Source: Marine Group II euryarchaeote MED-G37
Lineage (GTDB): Archaea; Thermoplasmatota; Poseidoniia; Poseidoniales; Thalassarchaeaceae
Direction of reading: 5' to 3'
DNA length: 64,000 nt
NCBI GenBank assembly: GCA_002457555.1
Contig: NTJQ01000006.1
Span: 4,468-68,467, forward strand
Part shown: positions 45,806 through 57,703 of the stretch, piece after piece
Layout: every line of letters starts with the position of its first letter
How positions within the stretch are numbered: position 1 is the first letter of the stretch
Program-made: the position numbers and the translations under genes
The notes under the pieces: model-generated
The model's database searches: none
Seen by the model: the letters and a program-made list of their open reading frames with translations, nothing else
What the model was told of the DNA's origin: nothing

Positions 45806-47509
45806 TTATACTATATTATTCAAACATTGGATTATTGTTTCATTTTCTTCTTCAGAACGGACTGCGAATCGAATAAATCTAGAATTCAAAGTTATTCCCA
45901 TATTCTCTGCATCCCTAACGAAAACACCTTTTTCTCGGCATTTAGAAACAAAAGAAGATGAATTCTTCGGGTATTCTTCAGGTAATTCCGTCAAAATGTA
46001 ATTTGCCACCCCAGGATATACTCTGAAACCTAAATTAGAGAGTTGCTCTGAAAATAGTTCACGGTTTTTGTGTATTTTTTCGTATTGCTCTTTGAAATAT
46101 TCTGGGTGATTTAGAGATTCTATTGCAGCGATCTGAGCAGGTAGACTAACTGCCCAGGGGGGTATAAATTTCCGTAAATAATTAGCATTAGATGTTACTG
46201 CATATGCAGCTCTCAATCCAGATAGTGCGTAGCATTTACTCATGCTCTTACATACGATCAATTCTTGAAATTCTTCAGTTAAATTCTCTAATGATTGGTA
46301 TCCTTTTACGTACTCGATATATGTCTCATCTACCCATATGGTTTTGCAATTAGTTTGGCCGTTTTTATTGGATAATATGTCTCTAATGATGTCCTCCATA
46401 TCCCCACAATACACTCCGGTTGGACTGTTTGGGTTGACTAAAATCACTGCGTCGTGTTCTCTAGATATCGAAATCAGTCCTTCTTTATCTATCTCGAATC
46501 CTTCATCTGGATAAAGAGGGAAATGAGTGACATTGCAACCGATTAGGTGTGTTAAAATATGCAGATATTCTCCATACATTGGAGACAGAATCAATACCTT
46601 TGATTCTTCGTTAATTAATTGAGGGAATAAAGAAAACATCAGAGATGAGGAGCCGGACGATACCAGAACGTTCTCCTCTTTCACGGACCTTGTTTGTGCG
46701 ATTTTTTGAATCAATGGTTCGCATTGAGTAGGAGGGGATTCTTTGAAACATCTTTCGATATTTTTTGTGACCGCATTTGAGGCTTGGGGGCACGGTGGAA
46801 ACGGGCTATCGAGGACATCAGCTACAATGAGTTGGTCCCTCAAATCGAAGTCCATACCTGATGCGGCCCAAGAGGCTCCTCCGTGATAGCACGCATCTTC
46901 TTTGATTTCTGGAGTATCGATAACTATCTGGTCAAGTAAATTGGATGCTCGTCTCATTGCTTCATCTATTGAGAGATGCATAGGATAAAATTTCACTTCG
47001 CCTGCTTCTGAACTATGTTCCATTAGGATATTCATCCCTATGCTGTTATACAATGGAAGAGCTTCCGTATGCCCCATTGCAATAAGGTCTGTAGCGCCGT
47101 TCTGTTCGGAGAATTTCAGAGACGCTAACATCAGCTTCAAGCCTAGGCCTTTACCGCGAAATTGCTTGGCAAGAGTAAGGCCTCTGATCTCATGTACTGT
47201 GCCGTCGGGATAGAAGTTTGTTGCGAGTGTGTCCATCGCATCTTTTGTGAAATATTTCTTCATTCTAAAGCCCGTTTCTGTCTGAAAATTAAGACTAACA
47301 TATCCAATAAATTTCTCTTTGAGAATAAGGCATATGAAATGCTGTCCTGGGTCCTCCAATCGCTTCGATTCCTGTGTTTCATATTGGCTTAGTTCGTCTG
47401 AAAAAACTGTATGTCGAAGATGTGAAATTTCATCCCACAAATTTCTGATACTTTCTGATTCCGCCAACATGGCGGCGTTGGGGCGTTGGAAATATACTAG
47501 GCGCTCCAT
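45806..47509 (-). CDS. GNAT (FeeM/LuxI-like) acyltransferase fused to a HisC/CobD-type PLP enzyme
   Basis: N-terminal RHTVFSDEL and FRGKGLG; C-terminal HGG, NPNSPTG, VDETY, SMSK.Y...GLR. Confidence 0.8.
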   Translation of the reverse strand: MERLVYFQRPNAAMLAESESIRNLWDEISHLRHTVFSDELSQYETQESKRLEDPGQHFICLILKEKFIGYVSLNFQTETGFRMKKYFTKDAMDTLATNFYPDGTVHEIRGLTLAKQFRGKGLGLKLMLASLKFSEQNGATDLIAMGHTEALPLYNSIGMNILMEHSSEAGEVKFYPMHLSIDEAMRRASNLLDQIVIDTPEIKEDACYHGGASWAASGMDFDLRDQLIVADVLDSPFPPCPQASNAVTKNIERCFKESPPTQCEPLIQKIAQTRSVKEENVLVSSGSSSLMFSLFPQLINEESKVLILSPMYGEYLHILTHLIGCNVTHFPLYPDEGFEIDKEGLISISREHDAVILVNPNSPTGVYCGDMEDIIRDILSNKNGQTNCKTIWVDETYIEYVKGYQSLENLTEEFQELIVCKSMSKCYALSGLRAAYAVTSNANYLRKFIPPWAVSLPAQIAAIESLNHPEYFKEQYEKIHKNRELFSEQLSNLGFRVYPGVANYILTELPEEYPKNSSSFVSKCREKGVFVRDAENMGITLNSRFIRFAVRSEEENETIIQCLNNIV

Positions 47510-51321: not shown

Positions 51322-52236
51322 ATGATGAGATTTGTAGCCCATTGCATGATTTGTTTGATGTTTGTGTCGTCGTTTTCTGGTTGCTTGGCAAGTGAGGATG
51401 ATGTCGATGATGGGCAATATATCGATGATGAAGAGGATTTGATCGATTACATCGAAGAGGGGATCTGTGGAGATATTGATGGGGATGGGGTTCCGGATTG
51501 TCCATTAAGTGGATATATCGAAGGCACTGAGCCCTGGTGGTGTACTTCAAGTGGAATTGGTGGCCATCACGTAGACCCTGTTTATGAGAATGCAGAGAAG
51601 GGGGGTCTTAGTGACGAAATATGTGAGTCCCTGACCTATGAGCTGAAGGCTGCGATTGAGTGGTCTCAGGAGTGGCCCACGCTGGGAGATGCTGAAGCTG
51701 CCGGATACAGCATGTCTGTTGAATATGTAGAAGGGATGGGGACTCACCATGTTATGCTCAATGATTTCTCAATGGAGGACTCTTCTTTCGATGCAGAAAA
51801 TCCTGTTTTCCCCGGTACAAGAATAGATTCTGTGTTTGAATTTGAAAGGCCTGAATTCCTAATGTATGGGGGTGAAGAAGAAGATTCTGAACTGGTCGGT
51901 TTCGCTTGGTTCGTACATTCTCCTGTGGATAACCCTCCTGAGGGCTTCTCGGGCGAAAACGATTGGTGGCACCGCCACGAAATAATGTGTTTCAGGCCCA
52001 ATGATTTTGTTTTCAGGGGAGAAGGTTTGAGTGACGATGTATGTGAAGAAAGAGGTGGTGAAAATATCAATCTAGAGGAGTACTGGATGGTGCACGCTTG
52101 GATTGTTAGGCCTTGGTTGACTTTTGATGATGTATTCACCAATCATCACCCGTGCTTGTATGAAGAGGGGCCAGAGACTGACCCAGAAGCAGAATGTTGG
52201 TCTGAGAGCACTGAACATGTTGGCCATGAAATCTAA
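51322..52236 (+). CDS. Acidic His-rich lipoprotein of unknown function
   Basis: FSGC lipobox; GMGTHH, PEFLMY, WHRH, WMVHAW motifs. Confidence 0.65.
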   Translation: MMRFVAHCMICLMFVSSFSGCLASEDDVDDGQYIDDEEDLIDYIEEGICGDIDGDGVPDCPLSGYIEGTEPWWCTSSGIGGHHVDPVYENAEKGGLSDEICESLTYELKAAIEWSQEWPTLGDAEAAGYSMSVEYVEGMGTHHVMLNDFSMEDSSFDAENPVFPGTRIDSVFEFERPEFLMYGGEEEDSELVGFAWFVHSPVDNPPEGFSGENDWWHRHEIMCFRPNDFVFRGEGLSDDVCEERGGENINLEEYWMVHAWIVRPWLTFDDVFTNHHPCLYEEGPETDPEAECWSESTEHVGHEI

Positions 52237-52310: not shown

Positions 52311-53192
52311 ATGGGTAGAGTTGTTTGGTTCACTGGCCTCTCCGGGGCGGGAAAAACCACCATTGCAATGGCTGCTGCAGAGCGGTTTGGTTGTGAGGTT
52401 CTTGACGGTGATACAATTCGGGATTTCTTTGCTAACCACGACTTCAGTAGAGAAGGTAGAGAAAGGCACCTACTAGGTATTGCCAAGATGGCAAAGATGA
52501 TTTCTAAGCACACTGATGTCCTATGTTCTTTCATCACCCCTTACGAGGATGTAAGAGAGAAGATTCTTGAGATTCTTCCAGATGATGCATTAATGGTGCA
52601 CATCTCTACGTCACTCGAGGTTTGTGAAGAACGTGATGTAAAGGGTCTGTATGCAAAGGCAAGAAGTGGAGAGATTTCCAACTTTACTGGGATTTCGGAC
52701 CCTTTCGATGAACCAAAATGTGCCCATATTACACTAAATTCAACTGGTGAAGAAGGCGGTTCGGTCGACGATATGGTCGAGCAGTTAGCTCACCTATTTG
52801 AGAAGAATAAGGCGGTTCTACTTCCTGGGCGTTGGCAGCCTCTCCACGTTGGTCATGAATGGTTAATCCAAAGAGAGTTGGACCAAGGAAAAAGAGTCGT
52901 TGTTGGAATTCGTGATACGCCCGTATCCGAGTCCGACCCTTACTCTGCTGATATGCGGAAGAGAATGATCGAGCACCGCTACGAAGGAGAAGAGGTTGAG
53001 GCTTGGATTATGCCAGATATTGAGGCCATATCCTATGGTCGAAAGGTCGGTTACGACCTACGTGAAGCAGATGATATTCCCCCGGAAGTATTCGCTGTCT
53101 CCGCCACAGGTGTTAGAGGTGGGGACAGAGCGAATGTATCTCAGAAAGTTATGGAATTCATGATTGCTGAGAGTATTTGGGACGGCGAGTGA
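52311..53192 (+). CDS. cysC: Adenylyl-sulfate kinase fused to a C-terminal HxGH nucleotidyltransferase domain
   Basis: GLSGAGKTT, LDGD, ITPY, RDVKGLY, NFTGISDP; then GRWQPLHVGH...YGRKVG...SATGVR. Confidence 0.9.
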   Translation: MGRVVWFTGLSGAGKTTIAMAAAERFGCEVLDGDTIRDFFANHDFSREGRERHLLGIAKMAKMISKHTDVLCSFITPYEDVREKILEILPDDALMVHISTSLEVCEERDVKGLYAKARSGEISNFTGISDPFDEPKCAHITLNSTGEEGGSVDDMVEQLAHLFEKNKAVLLPGRWQPLHVGHEWLIQRELDQGKRVVVGIRDTPVSESDPYSADMRKRMIEHRYEGEEVEAWIMPDIEAISYGRKVGYDLREADDIPPEVFAVSATGVRGGDRANVSQKVMEFMIAESIWDGE

Positions 53193-53230: not shown

Positions 53231-53977
53231 GTGACCGAGTCCTTCGCCGTTCCCTTGTTTGTATTGCCGATGGGTATTTTTCCAATGTGCCAAGAGCCAT
53301 TGAGAGTATTTGAGCCAAGATACAAACAAATGTTGGACGACTGTGTTCTGAATAATTCTGAGTTCGGATACATAGCCGCAGACGAAGACGGCGAAGAGGT
53401 AAATGGGTGGACGCTTTCGTCCGAATATGGGGTTCTAACTTCTGCAGAGAATTTGCAGGAACAGGGCGCGAATTTGATGTTCACAGCGTATGGAGAAAAA
53501 AGATTCAGAGTAAAGAAAATCGTACCTGCAGCCCTTCCCGCTGAAGATTTTGGAGATGTATTTCCGTCTGTTGACGAACTTGTAGAACAATACATTGAGG
53601 AAGATGCGGAAGGGAAATTGTACATCAGAGCCGAAGTAGAGATTTTGGAACCTATAGATGGCGTTATTGATGACGATGATTGGATGAATATTTTGGAGAT
53701 GTGGGCATTGCAGATTGTCGAGATGTCTGGTATGTTTCGAAATGAAGATTTGTCGCTACCTGAAGTATTCTCGGTTCTGAAATCTGAGTTTTCGCCTTAT
53801 TCAGAGTATTCTTTATGGTTTGCTTGCCATTCATTATTAGATTCGAACGATGATCGCCAATCTGCCCTCGCTTCGGCCTCAGTGAGCGAAGTTCAGCAAT
53901 TGCTGGAGAGGACCGTTTCAGAAAAAAACGAACAGTTGAAAGCTATTCGTTTGGTTATGGAAAACGACTCGGAGTAA
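53231..53977 (+). CDS. LON peptidase substrate-binding (N-terminal/PUA-like) domain protein
   Basis: VPLFVL, LRVFEPRYKQML motif; no protease domain. Confidence 0.8.
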   Translation: MTESFAVPLFVLPMGIFPMCQEPLRVFEPRYKQMLDDCVLNNSEFGYIAADEDGEEVNGWTLSSEYGVLTSAENLQEQGANLMFTAYGEKRFRVKKIVPAALPAEDFGDVFPSVDELVEQYIEEDAEGKLYIRAEVEILEPIDGVIDDDDWMNILEMWALQIVEMSGMFRNEDLSLPEVFSVLKSEFSPYSEYSLWFACHSLLDSNDDRQSALASASVSEVQQLLERTVSEKNEQLKAIRLVMENDSE

Positions 53978-54025
53978 GTGTCTCGGAGTCTGTATGCTCA
54001 TAACTACGTAGTTTGGGGGGGTTGT

Positions 54026-54904
54026 ATGGCTGAAGTGCCTGAAGTAGGGGCTTTCTTGCTCGGTGCGCCCAAGTGTGGCACTACTTGGTTGGCAGAAGCA
54101 TTGACGCAGCACCCCGAAATTTGTGTCTCGGACCCAAAGGAGCCGAATATTGTCGCTAGCCATAAGGGGACCTTTGGACGAGATGTTTCTGAGCCCAATT
54201 GGGCGGCTTATGCAGATTGCTTCAATGGAGAAGGTTTGCGAATTGATTGCTCGGTTCATGCTATGGCTTGTCCTGTTGCTCCTTCACGTGTAGCAAATAA
54301 TTGGCCGGATGCGCGTCTTATCATTTGTCTCCGAGAGCCTGTTAGTCGAACGGTTTCTCATTGGAATATGGTTCTAGATACCAAAGAAGATGCAGAAAAT
54401 GGCACTGATTGGAGTGATTTTGGTGAGGCTTGGGCTGACTCGCGGCTTTCGGCTGATACTTTGTATGGTGCTGCGGTTGCAAGATGGTTACACCATTTTG
54501 ACCGCGAGTCGATTTTTTTGATTGAAGCAAATCGTATGCGCCATGATCCTTCGAAGGTTCTTGAGGACGTTTGTGATCATCTGTCCTTATCTTCACATTT
54601 GTTTGATTTAGAGTCGGTACACAATGCAAATACTGCCGCAGACCGACGGCCGATGACTGTTTTTGGCCGTCTTTTACGATTCACTTCGAGTCTGCTACCT
54701 GGTTTCATCAAAGGGCCCATCGTCAGAAGATTACAGACTAGGGGTGTGAATGTGTACAAGATGCCTGTTCTGTCAAACAAGGCCCCTGCAAAGAGAGAGA
54801 TCACTGAGTCGCAAAGGAATTTGTTAGCTAAAGAGGTGAATGCTGATTTGGCATTGCTGGAAGAGTCTATGGGTTTTGATTGCTCGAAGTGGTACATTCA
54901 ATGA
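54026..54904 (+). CDS. PAPS-dependent sulfotransferase
   Basis: 5'-PSB loop GAPKCGTTWL, KEP, and 3'-PB motif LREPVSRTVS; start ATG 54026. Confidence 0.88.
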   Translation: MAEVPEVGAFLLGAPKCGTTWLAEALTQHPEICVSDPKEPNIVASHKGTFGRDVSEPNWAAYADCFNGEGLRIDCSVHAMACPVAPSRVANNWPDARLIICLREPVSRTVSHWNMVLDTKEDAENGTDWSDFGEAWADSRLSADTLYGAAVARWLHHFDRESIFLIEANRMRHDPSKVLEDVCDHLSLSSHLFDLESVHNANTAADRRPMTVFGRLLRFTSSLLPGFIKGPIVRRLQTRGVNVYKMPVLSNKAPAKREITESQRNLLAKEVNADLALLEESMGFDCSKWYIQ

Positions 54905-54908
54905 CAAA

Positions 54909-56078
54909 TCATTGATGTTGAATCCATATCTCTGTCCATCGATTATCTGCGGCAACTAGGAAGTACGGATTGAGTACTTCTTCAACCAAGTCGTAGTCTA
55001 GTGTTTTTCCGTCTGGTCCGACTACTATGCCTCCGGCGCCTGAGACTACAGCATGTGCGGCGGCAATATCCCAACAGGAAGTCGGACCGAATCTTGGATA
55101 GATATCTGCGCCGCCTTCAGCAACAATGCAGGCCTTGAGTGAGGACCCCATTCGGACTAATTCGTGTTCTCCGACGGCTTCAGCGAACGATTCGTCCTTT
55201 TCTCCTCGATGAGAACCGCTGGCAACTAATTTCACCTTACCTTCAGTTGGCCGTACCATCATTGGGCCCGATCCTTCTGGACCGTCCCGCTGGGATGCTG
55301 CCAAGGCGCCCCCAAACCAAGTTGTATCAGATGCGGGGGCGTGAACTACTCCAAACAGTGGTTTCCATCTAGATTCGTTACGCTGCATCAAAGCAATATT
55401 GACTGTAAACATTCCATTTCTTTTGATGAATTCCTTTGTTCCGTCCAATGGATCAACCAACCAACATGTGTTACTCGACATAGGGTCGCCAACCCTTCCT
55501 TCTTCAGACACGATAGGGGTGGAGTCGATTGATTGTAATCCTGCTACAATTACGTCGTGGGCTGCGATATCTGCTTTTGTTAGTGGAGACTCATCTCCCT
55601 TCTGAGTGATTTCGAAATCTTCCGCGTTCTCGTAGACATCCATGATCGCTTCACCGGCTTGAGTTGCTATCTCAACAATTTTTTCGGGGGTAAATGATAT
55701 GGATGGCTTGGGAGGATTTTTGGTTAATTGGTTCTCTATGTGGTCCTTCAAAAGTTCAACAGAACCATCAAATGAAGTGAGTTCTTCGTCTGTTGCAAGC
55801 ATTACAAAACCGGAGTTGGTTTTGGCCACGATGCAGGGTGTCTTTCCTTCCGTGGCCTGCTTGACTTCTTCGGGCCTCTCGTTCAAATGAACTAGGTGAA
55901 ATGGTATTTCTGAGGTTTTTCTCCATTCCTTCATCTCTCCTTTTTCCCAAGCGACACTATGGGTTATGTCGCAGAGTGAGCAATGTTGGCCTCTGAATGC
56001 GACTCCCATCACGTAACGTAATTCCCCAAGTAAGCCGCCATCTGCATGGTACACCCCGTACATCGATTCGATCTTCAT
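54909..56078 (-). CDS. cysQ: CysQ 3'(2'),5'-bisphosphate nucleotidase with an N-terminal CxxC domain
   Basis: K.DESPLT.AD, SEEG, WLVDPLDGTKEF, SGSH, MGSSLK, WDIAAAH; N-terminal ~120 aa contain HCSLC. Confidence 0.9.
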   Translation of the reverse strand: MKIESMYGVYHADGGLLGELRYVMGVAFRGQHCSLCDITHSVAWEKGEMKEWRKTSEIPFHLVHLNERPEEVKQATEGKTPCIVAKTNSGFVMLATDEELTSFDGSVELLKDHIENQLTKNPPKPSISFTPEKIVEIATQAGEAIMDVYENAEDFEITQKGDESPLTKADIAAHDVIVAGLQSIDSTPIVSEEGRVGDPMSSNTCWLVDPLDGTKEFIKRNGMFTVNIALMQRNESRWKPLFGVVHAPASDTTWFGGALAASQRDGPEGSGPMMVRPTEGKVKLVASGSHRGEKDESFAEAVGEHELVRMGSSLKACIVAEGGADIYPRFGPTSCWDIAAAHAVVSGAGGIVVGPDGKTLDYDLVEEVLNPYFLVAADNRWTEIWIQHQ

Positions 56079-56092
56079 CTTCAACACCAGAT

Positions 56093-56647
56093 TCAGAATT
56101 CTTGCAGTTCGTCTGATGCTTTTTCCAGACTTTCTCGTGCTGGTTCTGATAGGTGTTGCATGAATGGATCATCATCACCTACGATGGTTTTCCATGAGTT
56201 CATTGTTCGTTGCCAAATTTCCTGTTCGGAATTCCACTCGAGCCACCGGTCGACGAAGTCGCAATGGCGTTGTACTTCTTCATCGTCCTCGGACATCTTG
56301 CGAAGAATTGTGTTAGTCTGAGCGAGAATTATTCCGAATGGGGCATTCAATTTGTATGTTGTAAATGGGTTTCGCTCCTGGACAACAGTTAGGTGTTCAC
56401 GCCATAGACCGAACGTTACGTCATACATCCAACCGATTGAGAGGACTATTACCACCACTCCTCCGAATATCCCTAAGAGGCCTAAGTAGGTAGGTGGTAT
56501 GCCCATTACAGAGTTCATTTCTTCAAATCTCCAACTAACTAAGGGCCAAATTAGGAGAGTTAATGTTGTACACCAAAAACCCATGGAAATGAGTGTTTGG
56601 CTCTGCTGTATTCGCCAGTATTGGCGCATTGCTGTCTTCTTAAGCAC
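56093..56647 (-). CDS. Hypothetical membrane protein
   Basis: 184-aa ORF with 2 TM helices, between the sulfotransferase and cysQ on the same strand. Confidence 0.65.
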   Translation of the reverse strand: MLKKTAMRQYWRIQQSQTLISMGFWCTTLTLLIWPLVSWRFEEMNSVMGIPPTYLGLLGIFGGVVVIVLSIGWMYDVTFGLWREHLTVVQERNPFTTYKLNAPFGIILAQTNTILRKMSEDDEEVQRHCDFVDRWLEWNSEQEIWQRTMNSWKTIVGDDDPFMQHLSEPARESLEKASDELQEF

Positions 56648-56764: not shown

Positions 56765-57703
56765 TCAATGTGAGATTATGAGGCTAGGGTCGATATGCGA
56801 TTCGAGGTTCGCGAGGAACTCTATCTCTTCTGAGAAGGCTGCTTCTAAGTCAGTGCGTTTCTCGATGCTGAGTTCTGGTCTTTGGGTCTTTTTAGCTTTG
56901 TAACCAGGGCGGCGTAGTGGGTCGAAAATTGCCTTGCGAAGTTTGTGAGAAGGAAGGAGGATTTTGGCAAGTTTGACGAGGAACATTGGAGGTTGTCGAA
57001 GGAATCTGGCCCATCCTGCTTTGTTCATATCGCCGCCCTCGTTGTGATGGGGTAATTTTTGGTCAATAGGGAAAGGCGACTCGTCGAGCCATTCAAGGAT
57101 GCTGTTGAGGGTGGCTAAGGAATCGTTTCTAATCGACGAAATAGGGATTATTCGGATTCGGTTGGCTTCCGCTCCTCCTAAGGCTTCGACCCATTGTAAT
57201 GTCGGGTGTTTGAGACGAGGGAAGGAAAGGAAACTCCAGGTTTGTGGGTCCTCTGGATTTGCTTGATAATCACCGGCTGCAGCTGCTGCGAGCATTTCGG
57301 ACTGACTAATGTTGTAGTCGACTAATCGCTTTGAGTGCTCTTGATGCATGCTGAGCATCAATTCGATTGGGTCCCGGAGTGTGATGATTATTCTCGCATC
57401 CGGCATTTGGTCGCGGGCGGTTGTTAGTGCTCGATCTGAATAGAGGTGAAATACTGACTTATCCATCACCCAGGGTTCGCCACTAAATTTGTGGAAATCC
57501 GGTTCTGGGGTGATGATTGTGTGCCCTTTTGGGTGGATTGGAGCGGTTGGAAATTCCGCCACGCCCGCCATTAGAAAGTGGCTTTCATTTGGCCATGGGT
57601 GAAAAATAGATTCGTGGGTTCGAAGCCAATGCATGAGAGATGTTGTGCCGGTCTTCGGCCCGCCGATGAGTAGGAGGTTTGGGGTCTGATTGTATCTATG
57701 CAG
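56765..57703 (-). CDS. PAPS-dependent sulfotransferase, probable CTG start
   Basis: The frame stays open upstream of the track's ATG (57634) through GGPKTGTTSL (5'-PSB). There is no ATG/GTG/TTG before the in-frame TAA. GGAGG lies 7 nt before CTG 57703. LRDP 3'-PB motif present. Confidence 0.85.
   Translation of the reverse strand: MHRYNQTPNLLLIGGPKTGTTSLMHWLRTHESIFHPWPNESHFLMAGVAEFPTAPIHPKGHTIITPEPDFHKFSGEPWVMDKSVFHLYSDRALTTARDQMPDARIIITLRDPIELMLSMHQEHSKRLVDYNISQSEMLAAAAAGDYQANPEDPQTWSFLSFPRLKHPTLQWVEALGGAEANRIRIIPISSIRNDSLATLNSILEWLDESPFPIDQKLPHHNEGGDMNKAGWARFLRQPPMFLVKLAKILLPSHKLRKAIFDPLRRPGYKAKKTQRPELSIEKRTDLEAAFSEEIEFLANLESHIDPSLIISH

Follow-up and report, generated by a model that had tools for sequence, protein, structure and literature searches.

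A candidate minimal PAPS synthase in Marine Group IIb archaea: APS kinase fused to a small, NMNAT-derived nucleotidyltransferase

In the 64,000-nucleotide stretch of DNA from Marine Group II euryarchaeote MED-G37 that we analysed (contig NTJQ01000006.1, positions 4,468 to 68,467; hereafter the window), a gene denoted cysC-NT joins an APS kinase (CysC; APS is adenosine 5'-phosphosulfate) to a small nucleotidyltransferase (NT) domain of the HxGH superfamily. Sulfate activation, as textbooks describe it, relies on one of two types of ATP sulfurylase, Sat and CysDN. Based on sequence comparisons, we propose with a probability of about 0.6 that the C-terminal domain of this protein is a minimal ATP sulfurylase, derived from the nicotinamide mononucleotide (NMN) adenylyltransferase NMNAT, that hands APS to the fused CysC for conversion into PAPS (3'-phosphoadenosine 5'-phosphosulfate). 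That the whole mini-NT family represents a third class of ATP sulfurylase, which arose from NMNAT when the NMN pocket was deleted, seems to us slightly favoured. A preliminary description of the window had suggested that the small domain makes APS, giving a PAPS synthase of ~290 amino acids (aa), and had tied the domain to Sat; after comparative tests the first suggestion is the best-supported reading, still one that we infer, while the relationship to Sat fails. An APS-making role is best supported because the fusion and the CysD/CysN-CysC module are mutually exclusive, because one replaces the other in the same chromosomal slot, because housekeeping enzymes of similar type are encoded elsewhere, and because the domain is partnered, throughout its family, with APS-kinase-like genes and sulfotransferases.

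The proposed mechanism has two steps. In the ~125-aa C-terminal domain sulfate would serve as the nucleophile, converting ATP and sulfate into APS and pyrophosphate; here the machinery for transfer of the ATP alpha-phosphate (GRxQPxHxGH, SxTxxR) would have been kept, the NMN pocket lost, and two conserved arginines, R201 and R244, gained. The N-terminal APS kinase, judged by homology only, would then phosphorylate the 3'-OH of APS to yield PAPS, and the linkage of the two domains would help to drive the unfavourable first step. PAPS would next be used by the neighbouring sulfotransferases, with CysQ clearing the by-product PAP (3'-phosphoadenosine 5'-phosphate). That the HxGH superfamily is able to adenylylate sulfate is demonstrated by Sat. 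The gene and its parts are as follows.

52311..53192, + strand: cysC-NT fusion gene, 293 aa plus stop, ATG start (open reading frame, translation, domain matches and AF2 model)
52311..52805, + strand: APS kinase domain, aa 1-165 (PF01583 and matches to APS kinases in the PDB)
52335-52361, + strand: kinase P-loop, GLSGAGKTT
52401-52412, + strand: kinase LDGD
52443-52469, + strand: kinase FSREGRERH
52527-52544, + strand: kinase SFITPY
52632-52715, + strand: kinase lid, RDVKGLYAKARSGEISNFTGISDPFDEP
52806..53189, + strand: mini HxGH nucleotidyltransferase (NT) domain, aa 166-293, predicted to be NMNAT-derived, candidate ATP sulfurylase (PF01467, family alignments, model, Foldseek and profile comparison with the PDB)
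52827..52856, + strand: GRWQPLHVGH, aa 173-182, the ATP-binding/catalytic HxGH motif
52911..52922, + strand: RDTP, family-specific, in place of GSAQ of NMNAT
53034..53054, + strand: YGRKVGY, aa 242-248, a family-specific loop in place of the ~30-aa NMN-binding insert
53100..53117, + strand: SATGVR, aa 264-269, the ISxTxxR superfamily motif

The preliminary description of this gene, a CysC domain followed by a domain of ~125 aa with GRWQPLHVGH, YGRKVG and SATGVR, was accurate: each motif could be located and both domains were matched. Marine metagenomes contain thousands of near-identical homologues, nearly all of them 293-294 aa long, and the close homologues carry the name Candidatus Thalassarchaeum betae (Marine Group IIb, MGIIb). 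The fusion is therefore a stable and abundant gene rather than an accident of assembly. The AF2 model of the full-length protein has a pLDDT of 91.9 and a pTM of 0.77.

The N-terminal domain is a full-length canonical APS kinase, predicted to convert APS into PAPS. The Pfam model APS_kinase (PF01583) matches aa 2-142 over profile positions 2-151 of 152 (5.9e-40; 137.2 bits, cut-off 21.1), and APS kinases in the PDB align at ~1e-29. Alignment to 5cb6 and 2pey shows that the P-loop GLSGAGKTT, LDGD, R37, F45, R50, SFITPY and the complete lid are all present.

The C-terminal domain has the fold, the HxGH motif and the ISxTxxR motif of the HxGH nucleotidyltransferase superfamily, and falls outside archaeal NMNAT proper. 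It is recognised by the general models CTP_transf_like (PF01467; aa 170-238, 24.5 bits, cut-off 21) and TIGR00125 (28.7 bits, cut-off 27.7), whereas NCBIfam models of NMNAT and PPAT match weakly and only within aa 165-233 (22-31 bits against cut-offs of 127-181); the archaeal NMNAT models TIGR01527 and NF002243, for example, align to aa 170-231 alone and reach 22.4 of a required 181.2 bits and 30.7 of a required 127 bits. Modelled alone, the domain has a pLDDT of 91.2. The comparison of an AlphaFold model with Sat, NMNAT and PPAT, which the preliminary description had called for, places its fold nearest to NadM, archaeal NMNAT and PPAT, the best Foldseek matches in the PDB (TMq 0.63-0.72).

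A search with aa 163-293 among 1.8 billion representative proteins returned 675 representatives at E<=1e-3 and 228 at E<=1e-10. These form a compact family (~105-125 aa) whose alignments show the motifs GRWQPxHxGH, RDTP..E.NP(Y/F), IPDI, YGRxVGY and ISATxIR; with the hidden Markov model of the family the window protein reaches 140 bits, and it displays every one of these motifs, fused to the kinase. The nearest known relatives are archaeal NMNAT (MJ0541 and MTH150; PDB 1F9A and 1EJ2) and NadM, both in fold (TMq ~0.7) and in sequence, the family profile aligning to archaeal NMNAT at 5e-14 over the first ~75 residues and SxTxIR only. The two groups share GRxQPxHxGH, NPF..ER, IPxxDI and SxTxIR, and R174, H179, H182 and R269 of the window protein match R11, H16, H19 and R136 of the Methanothermobacter thermautotrophicus enzyme, the residues probed in deposited mutants. 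Unlike archaeal NMNAT, however, the family lacks the ~30-residue NMN-binding segment between DIE and GY and has YGRxVGY instead; GSAQ is replaced by RDTP, R47 of NMNAT is lost, and two essentially invariant arginines are new, R201 (Arg in 137/143 representatives) and R244 (147/149). The HxGH/ISxTxxR catalytic residues are near-invariant across the more than 140 representatives compared. These features indicate that the NT domain is a truncated adenylyltransferase derived from NMNAT, with predicted intact ATP chemistry and, by alignment and model, a much-reduced and more cationic acceptor site.

Membership in the Sat family, on the other hand, was rejected: PF01747 (Sat) gives no match to the window protein at E<=1, the fold matches are of the NMNAT/PPAT type, and the motifs have the NMNAT form. 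Neither QxRNPxHxxH nor GRDHAG of Sat is found in the protein, which has GRWQPLHVGH and YGRKVGY instead. The motif argument of the preliminary description therefore does not survive, as GRWQPLHVGH and SATGVR are motifs of archaeal NMNAT and of the superfamily, and YGRKVG shares only 'GR' with GRDHAG. We also considered a decaying passenger domain; this was excluded by selection, since the ratio of nonsynonymous to synonymous divergence (dN/dS) of the NT domain is 0.018, close to the 0.015 of the kinase, at a dS of ~1.1, with the dN of the NT domain equal or lower across genera. Identity between related genomes is 85-90% for the fusion, as compared with 53-80% for the flanking proteins.

We then asked where APS might otherwise come from. 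The window holds no sat or cysDN, as had been noted, and the same is true on a wider scale: Sat, CysD, CysN and AprA were sought in the window genome (1.28 Mb, 79% complete) and in five other genomes of the genus (89-97% complete, one of them in a single contig), and none was found. Across the 61 MGIIb genomes of the same taxonomic family that we compared, Sat (PF01747) is found in none. Several candidates were rejected: the single PAPS_reduct match in the window genome is GMP synthase, the best CysN candidate resembles EF-1alpha and, at 246 bits, stays below the cut-off of 336, and formation of APS by reverse action of APS reductase is excluded by the absence of AprA (<=33 bits against a cut-off of 642). 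Scans of the MGIIb genomes for PAPS or APS reductase gave no CysH-like match, and the pathway therefore appears to serve sulfation rather than sulfur assimilation.

Other genes of the window genome code for an NMNAT-like protein, a PPAT-DPCK fusion and a protein resembling RibL/cytidylyltransferase, so that the housekeeping adenylyltransferase roles are already covered; together with scores far under the cut-offs, this led us to reject a housekeeping NMNAT or PPAT role for the NT domain. The PPAT-DPCK protein, encoded in G000 outside the window (contig C12:89735-90763, +), is a 337-aa fusion of archaeal PPAT and GTP-dependent dephospho-CoA kinase, and is thus another adenylyltransferase joined to a 3'-kinase.

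The strongest comparative evidence comes from the distribution of the fusion among the 61 MGIIb genomes. The full fusion is found in ~21 of them, including 6/6 in the genus of the window, and CysD in nine, which belong to two genera and always have it beside a CysN-CysC of 643 aa. No genome has both (hypergeometric P = 0.016 over all genomes and 1e-4 over those bearing sulfotransferases, uncorrected for phylogeny). Sulfotransferases are limited to genera with either module, plus genus g11, and the association between module and sulfotransferase is strong (Fisher's test, 2e-10, likewise uncorrected for phylogeny). According to a published reconstruction (PMC6864105), MGIIb possess cysDN and cysC; with cysD in 9/61, this fits only a minority of the genomes examined here.

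Moreover, the two modules occupy the same position on the chromosome. The conserved backbone reads PurL-PyrF-FtsY-PfdA-[X]-CysQ-TM184-L18Ae-GGGPS, where X is cysC-NT, usually with the sulfotransferase ST1, in G000, G018, G030 and G028, and cysNC plus cysD in G039, G007, G054 and G050; G028 has the fusion while its congeners have CysDNC. CysD/CysN-CysC thus resembles the fusion in its slot beside cysQ in sister MGIIb genera and excludes it in distribution, but is unrelated in sequence and fold, being a GTP-driven combination of a PP-loop ATP pyrophosphatase and a GTPase totalling ~950 aa as compared with 293 aa. The 16-kb loci of G039, G007, G054 and G050 (L146-L149) are without ST1 and ST2, their sulfotransferases being elsewhere on the contig. 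In G026 (L157) and G048 the slot is rearranged to ST1-TM184-L18Ae-PfdA and cysQ is gone, and looking up PfdA in genus g11 to find the slot returned nothing.

The family extends far beyond MGIIb. Of the 150 top-scoring representatives, about half also contain an APS-kinase or APS-kinase-like domain, located on one or the other side of the NT domain. Using a degenerate DNA pattern scan to find family loci, we were able to identify carriers in the cultured Halocatena pleomorpha, Halobacteriales, Acidobacteriota, Planctomycetota, Omnitrophota, the candidate phyla radiation (CPR), DPANN, Alphaproteobacteria and, massively, Pelagibacteraceae. A sulfotransferase lies within ~3 kb of the NT gene in at least ten cellular lineages, and sulfotransferases adjoin both the full-kinase and the short-kinase versions. 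Among 22 diverse carrier genomes, at least 15 have a sulfotransferase, as compared with 2/14 controls; one has Sat and six have CysD. The co-occurrence of the family with cysC and sulfotransferases in genomes lacking Sat, proposed as a check in the preliminary description, is thus mostly seen, with these six CysD carriers and the one Sat carrier as exceptions. In Halocatena pleomorpha and four Pelagibacter genomes sulfotransferases are present and Sat and CysD are both absent.

In SAR11 a 124-aa NT gene overlaps a gene of 136 aa for a truncated APS-kinase-like protein. This NT/kinase pair is seen in Pelagibacter sp. HIMB1495 (L076:1523-2304) and in ~90 other Pelagibacteraceae loci (L026-L145), where it adjoins genes for a HalD/WelO5-like Fe/2OG (2-oxoglutarate) oxygenase and for methyl/osmolyte metabolism. 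Viral contigs provided 120 further loci, with the kinase fused in five and encoded within the locus in 103 (108/120 together); in 87 the kinase gene overlaps the NT gene or lies immediately next to it, and in 15 more the distance is at most 700 bp. Neighbours were surveyed at 31 phage loci, where 2OG-Fe(II) oxygenases are the commonest family and sulfotransferases the second commonest (13/139 open reading frames), while the 25 most frequent neighbour families include no Sat and no CysD. The viral loci (L159-L278) also contain tail sheath and endosialidase-chaperone genes, and combine NT and kinase-like pairs with sulfotransferases, 2OG-Fe(II) oxygenases and glycosyltransferases, which suggests that phages encode cassettes for hydroxylation and sulfation.

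Several observations weigh against a sulfurylase role of the NT domain. Its likeness to Sat is confined to the superfamily level in both sequence and fold, and no Sat structure appears among the best 50 PDB matches of Foldseek or among the matches of the profile to the PDB. The kinase scores 134.1 bits with the NCBIfam model apsK (TIGR00455), slightly under the equivalog cut-off of 138.7, and its H53 stands at what we take to be the position of the APS-contacting Asn of canonical APS kinases (PAPSS1 numbering); many family members, moreover, pair with a truncated kinase that has no lid. Genus g11 (G011, G024, G035 and G046) as well as G003 and G026 have sulfotransferases and no APS kinase, fusion or CysD, and the presence of a sulfotransferase is therefore no proof of PAPS synthesis within the genome. 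The demand for PAPS that the preliminary description read from the nearby sulfotransferases and cysQ is accordingly weaker than claimed, as related genomes keep sulfotransferases without an APS kinase. Most of the genomes are metagenome-assembled genomes (MAGs), and few independent evolutionary events underlie the co-occurrence statistics. Finally, in an acidobacterial MAG (L154:896-4038) NT-CysC and genuine cysD and cysN genes are divergent neighbours within a sulfotransferase-rich glycan cluster that also includes glycosyltransferase and ABC exporter genes, and five other carrier genomes have CysD elsewhere, so that the NT domain is not always a substitute for CysDN. The acidobacterial copy reads YGHDVGY and is the only one with R244H among the 150 representatives; a histidine in the copy directly beside cysDN speaks in favour of the sulfurylase role, as it fits a relaxed need at that locus, though this is a single case.

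It is possible, although unlikely, that the NT domain adenylylates some other acceptor, such as a small anion or a phospho-compound, with the kinase-like partner handling its product or substrate and APS being supplied by an unrecognised enzyme. The nearest homologues, which are NMNAT and PPAT rather than Sat, would agree with this, as would the lidless partner kinases, the prominence of 2OG-Fe(II) oxygenases around the phage and SAR11 genes, and the six carriers with CysDN, adjacent in one of them. However, the MGIIb kinase is full-length and retains P-loop, LDGD, SFITPY and lid, the fusion takes the place of CysNC plus CysD with cysQ kept, sulfotransferases accompany long and short kinases alike, the NMN pocket is deleted, and scans for Sat, CysD and AprA revealed no alternative source of APS.

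Less probable still is a non-catalytic role, in which the NT domain would sense ATP, APS or PAPS, or would act as an oligomerisation partner of the kinase. Degenerate regulatory domains do have a precedent in sulfate-activating enzymes, as fungal ATP sulfurylase has an inactive, APS-kinase-like regulatory domain, and such a role would sit well with CysDN in some carrier genomes; yet the catalytic residues would hardly be expected to be so nearly invariant, nor dN/dS to be ~0.02, and ~20 MGIIb genomes, Halocatena and SAR11 would be left with an APS kinase and sulfotransferases and no source of APS. A chance fusion of CysC to a common housekeeping enzyme (NMNAT, PPAT or cytidylyltransferase) we consider very improbable. 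Apart from the weak model matches, the evidence runs the other way: scores remain far below the cut-offs, the alignments cover no more than the N-terminal 60-75 aa, the domain has no NMN-binding insert, NMNAT, PPAT-DPCK and RibL-like proteins come from other genes of the same genome, and the fusion partner and gene neighbourhood are kept across domains of life, whichever the domain order. We therefore retain the APS-forming NT domain as the preferred reading.

The genes next to the fusion are consistent with the preliminary description, which had noted two sulfotransferases and cysQ nearby, the second sulfotransferase matching under the cut-off:

53231..53977, + strand: protein with a LON N-terminal (substrate-binding) domain, between the fusion and ST1
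53978..54904, + strand: sulfotransferase ST1, a predicted user of PAPS (PF00685 and PF13469), kept beside the fusion in relatives
54909..56087, - strand: CysQ-type PAP phosphatase (PF00459, C-terminal ~260 aa), preceded in the longest open reading frame by ~130 further aa; kept in both module types
56093..56647, - strand: conserved 184-aa membrane protein (TM184) adjoining cysQ, no Pfam match
56765..57634, - strand: second sulfotransferase-like protein, ST2 (PF13469, 21.6 bits, under the cut-off), with orthologues in G030 and G028

The extra N-terminus of the longest CysQ reading frame contains a CSLCDITH motif and has no Pfam match, and relatives mostly align over the C-terminal ~260 aa only; it may be a start-codon artefact or an added domain. 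TM184 adjoins cysQ in both module types and persists where the PAPS module is absent. Upstream of the fusion, at 51322-52236 (+), lies a gene for a very acidic protein of 304 aa that matches no family. Only this species and its closest relative, G052, have this gene and the LON-N gene on either side of the fusion; in other genera cysC-NT runs in the opposite orientation and stands directly beside PfdA and ST1. Elsewhere in the window, at 45806-47509 (-), a GNAT acetyltransferase domain is fused to a class I/II aminotransferase in a protein of 567 aa.

The proposed arrangement has parallels among known enzymes. Like the metazoan PAPSS1/2 (APS kinase-Sat) and the fungal and Aquifex-type Sat-APS kinase, the fusion joins an APS kinase to a nucleotidyltransferase of the HxGH superfamily; here too both domain orders exist in nature, and the proposed logic, in which APS is made and then phosphorylated, is the same. 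Unlike in canonical PAPS synthases, the partner is NMNAT-like and has only ~125 aa, with no PF01747 match, PUA-like domain, QxRN or GRDHAG, and its sulfurylase role is putative. A second parallel is offered by PPAT-DPCK (CoA synthase) and NadR (NMNAT plus ribosylnicotinamide kinase), which also combine a small HxGH adenylyltransferase with a P-loop kinase of the same short pathway, and DPCK resembles APS kinase in phosphorylating the 3'-OH of adenosine. Their kinase families and substrates differ from those of the fusion, however, and the window genome has a PPAT-DPCK of its own.

The literature that we searched does not describe the fusion or its family. If the proposed function is true, an NMNAT-derived, third type of ATP sulfurylase, ~125 aa in size, would clearly exemplify non-orthologous gene displacement and would illustrate how far an active site for sulfate adenylylation can be reduced; with its APS kinase or APS-kinase-like partner it would be the smallest PAPS synthase known, operating without GTP coupling. 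For enzymatic sulfation, a single chain of ~290 aa that makes PAPS would be a useful tool as well. SAR11 has usually been regarded as incapable of sulfate activation. The new enzyme would supply PAPS to the sulfotransferases of abundant ocean microbes (MGIIb and SAR11), haloarchaea, CPR/DPANN and many phages in which Sat and CysDN are lacking; it would account for the way in which phages and organisms with reduced genomes feed these enzymes, and metabolic reconstructions of MGIIb and SAR11 would have to be corrected.

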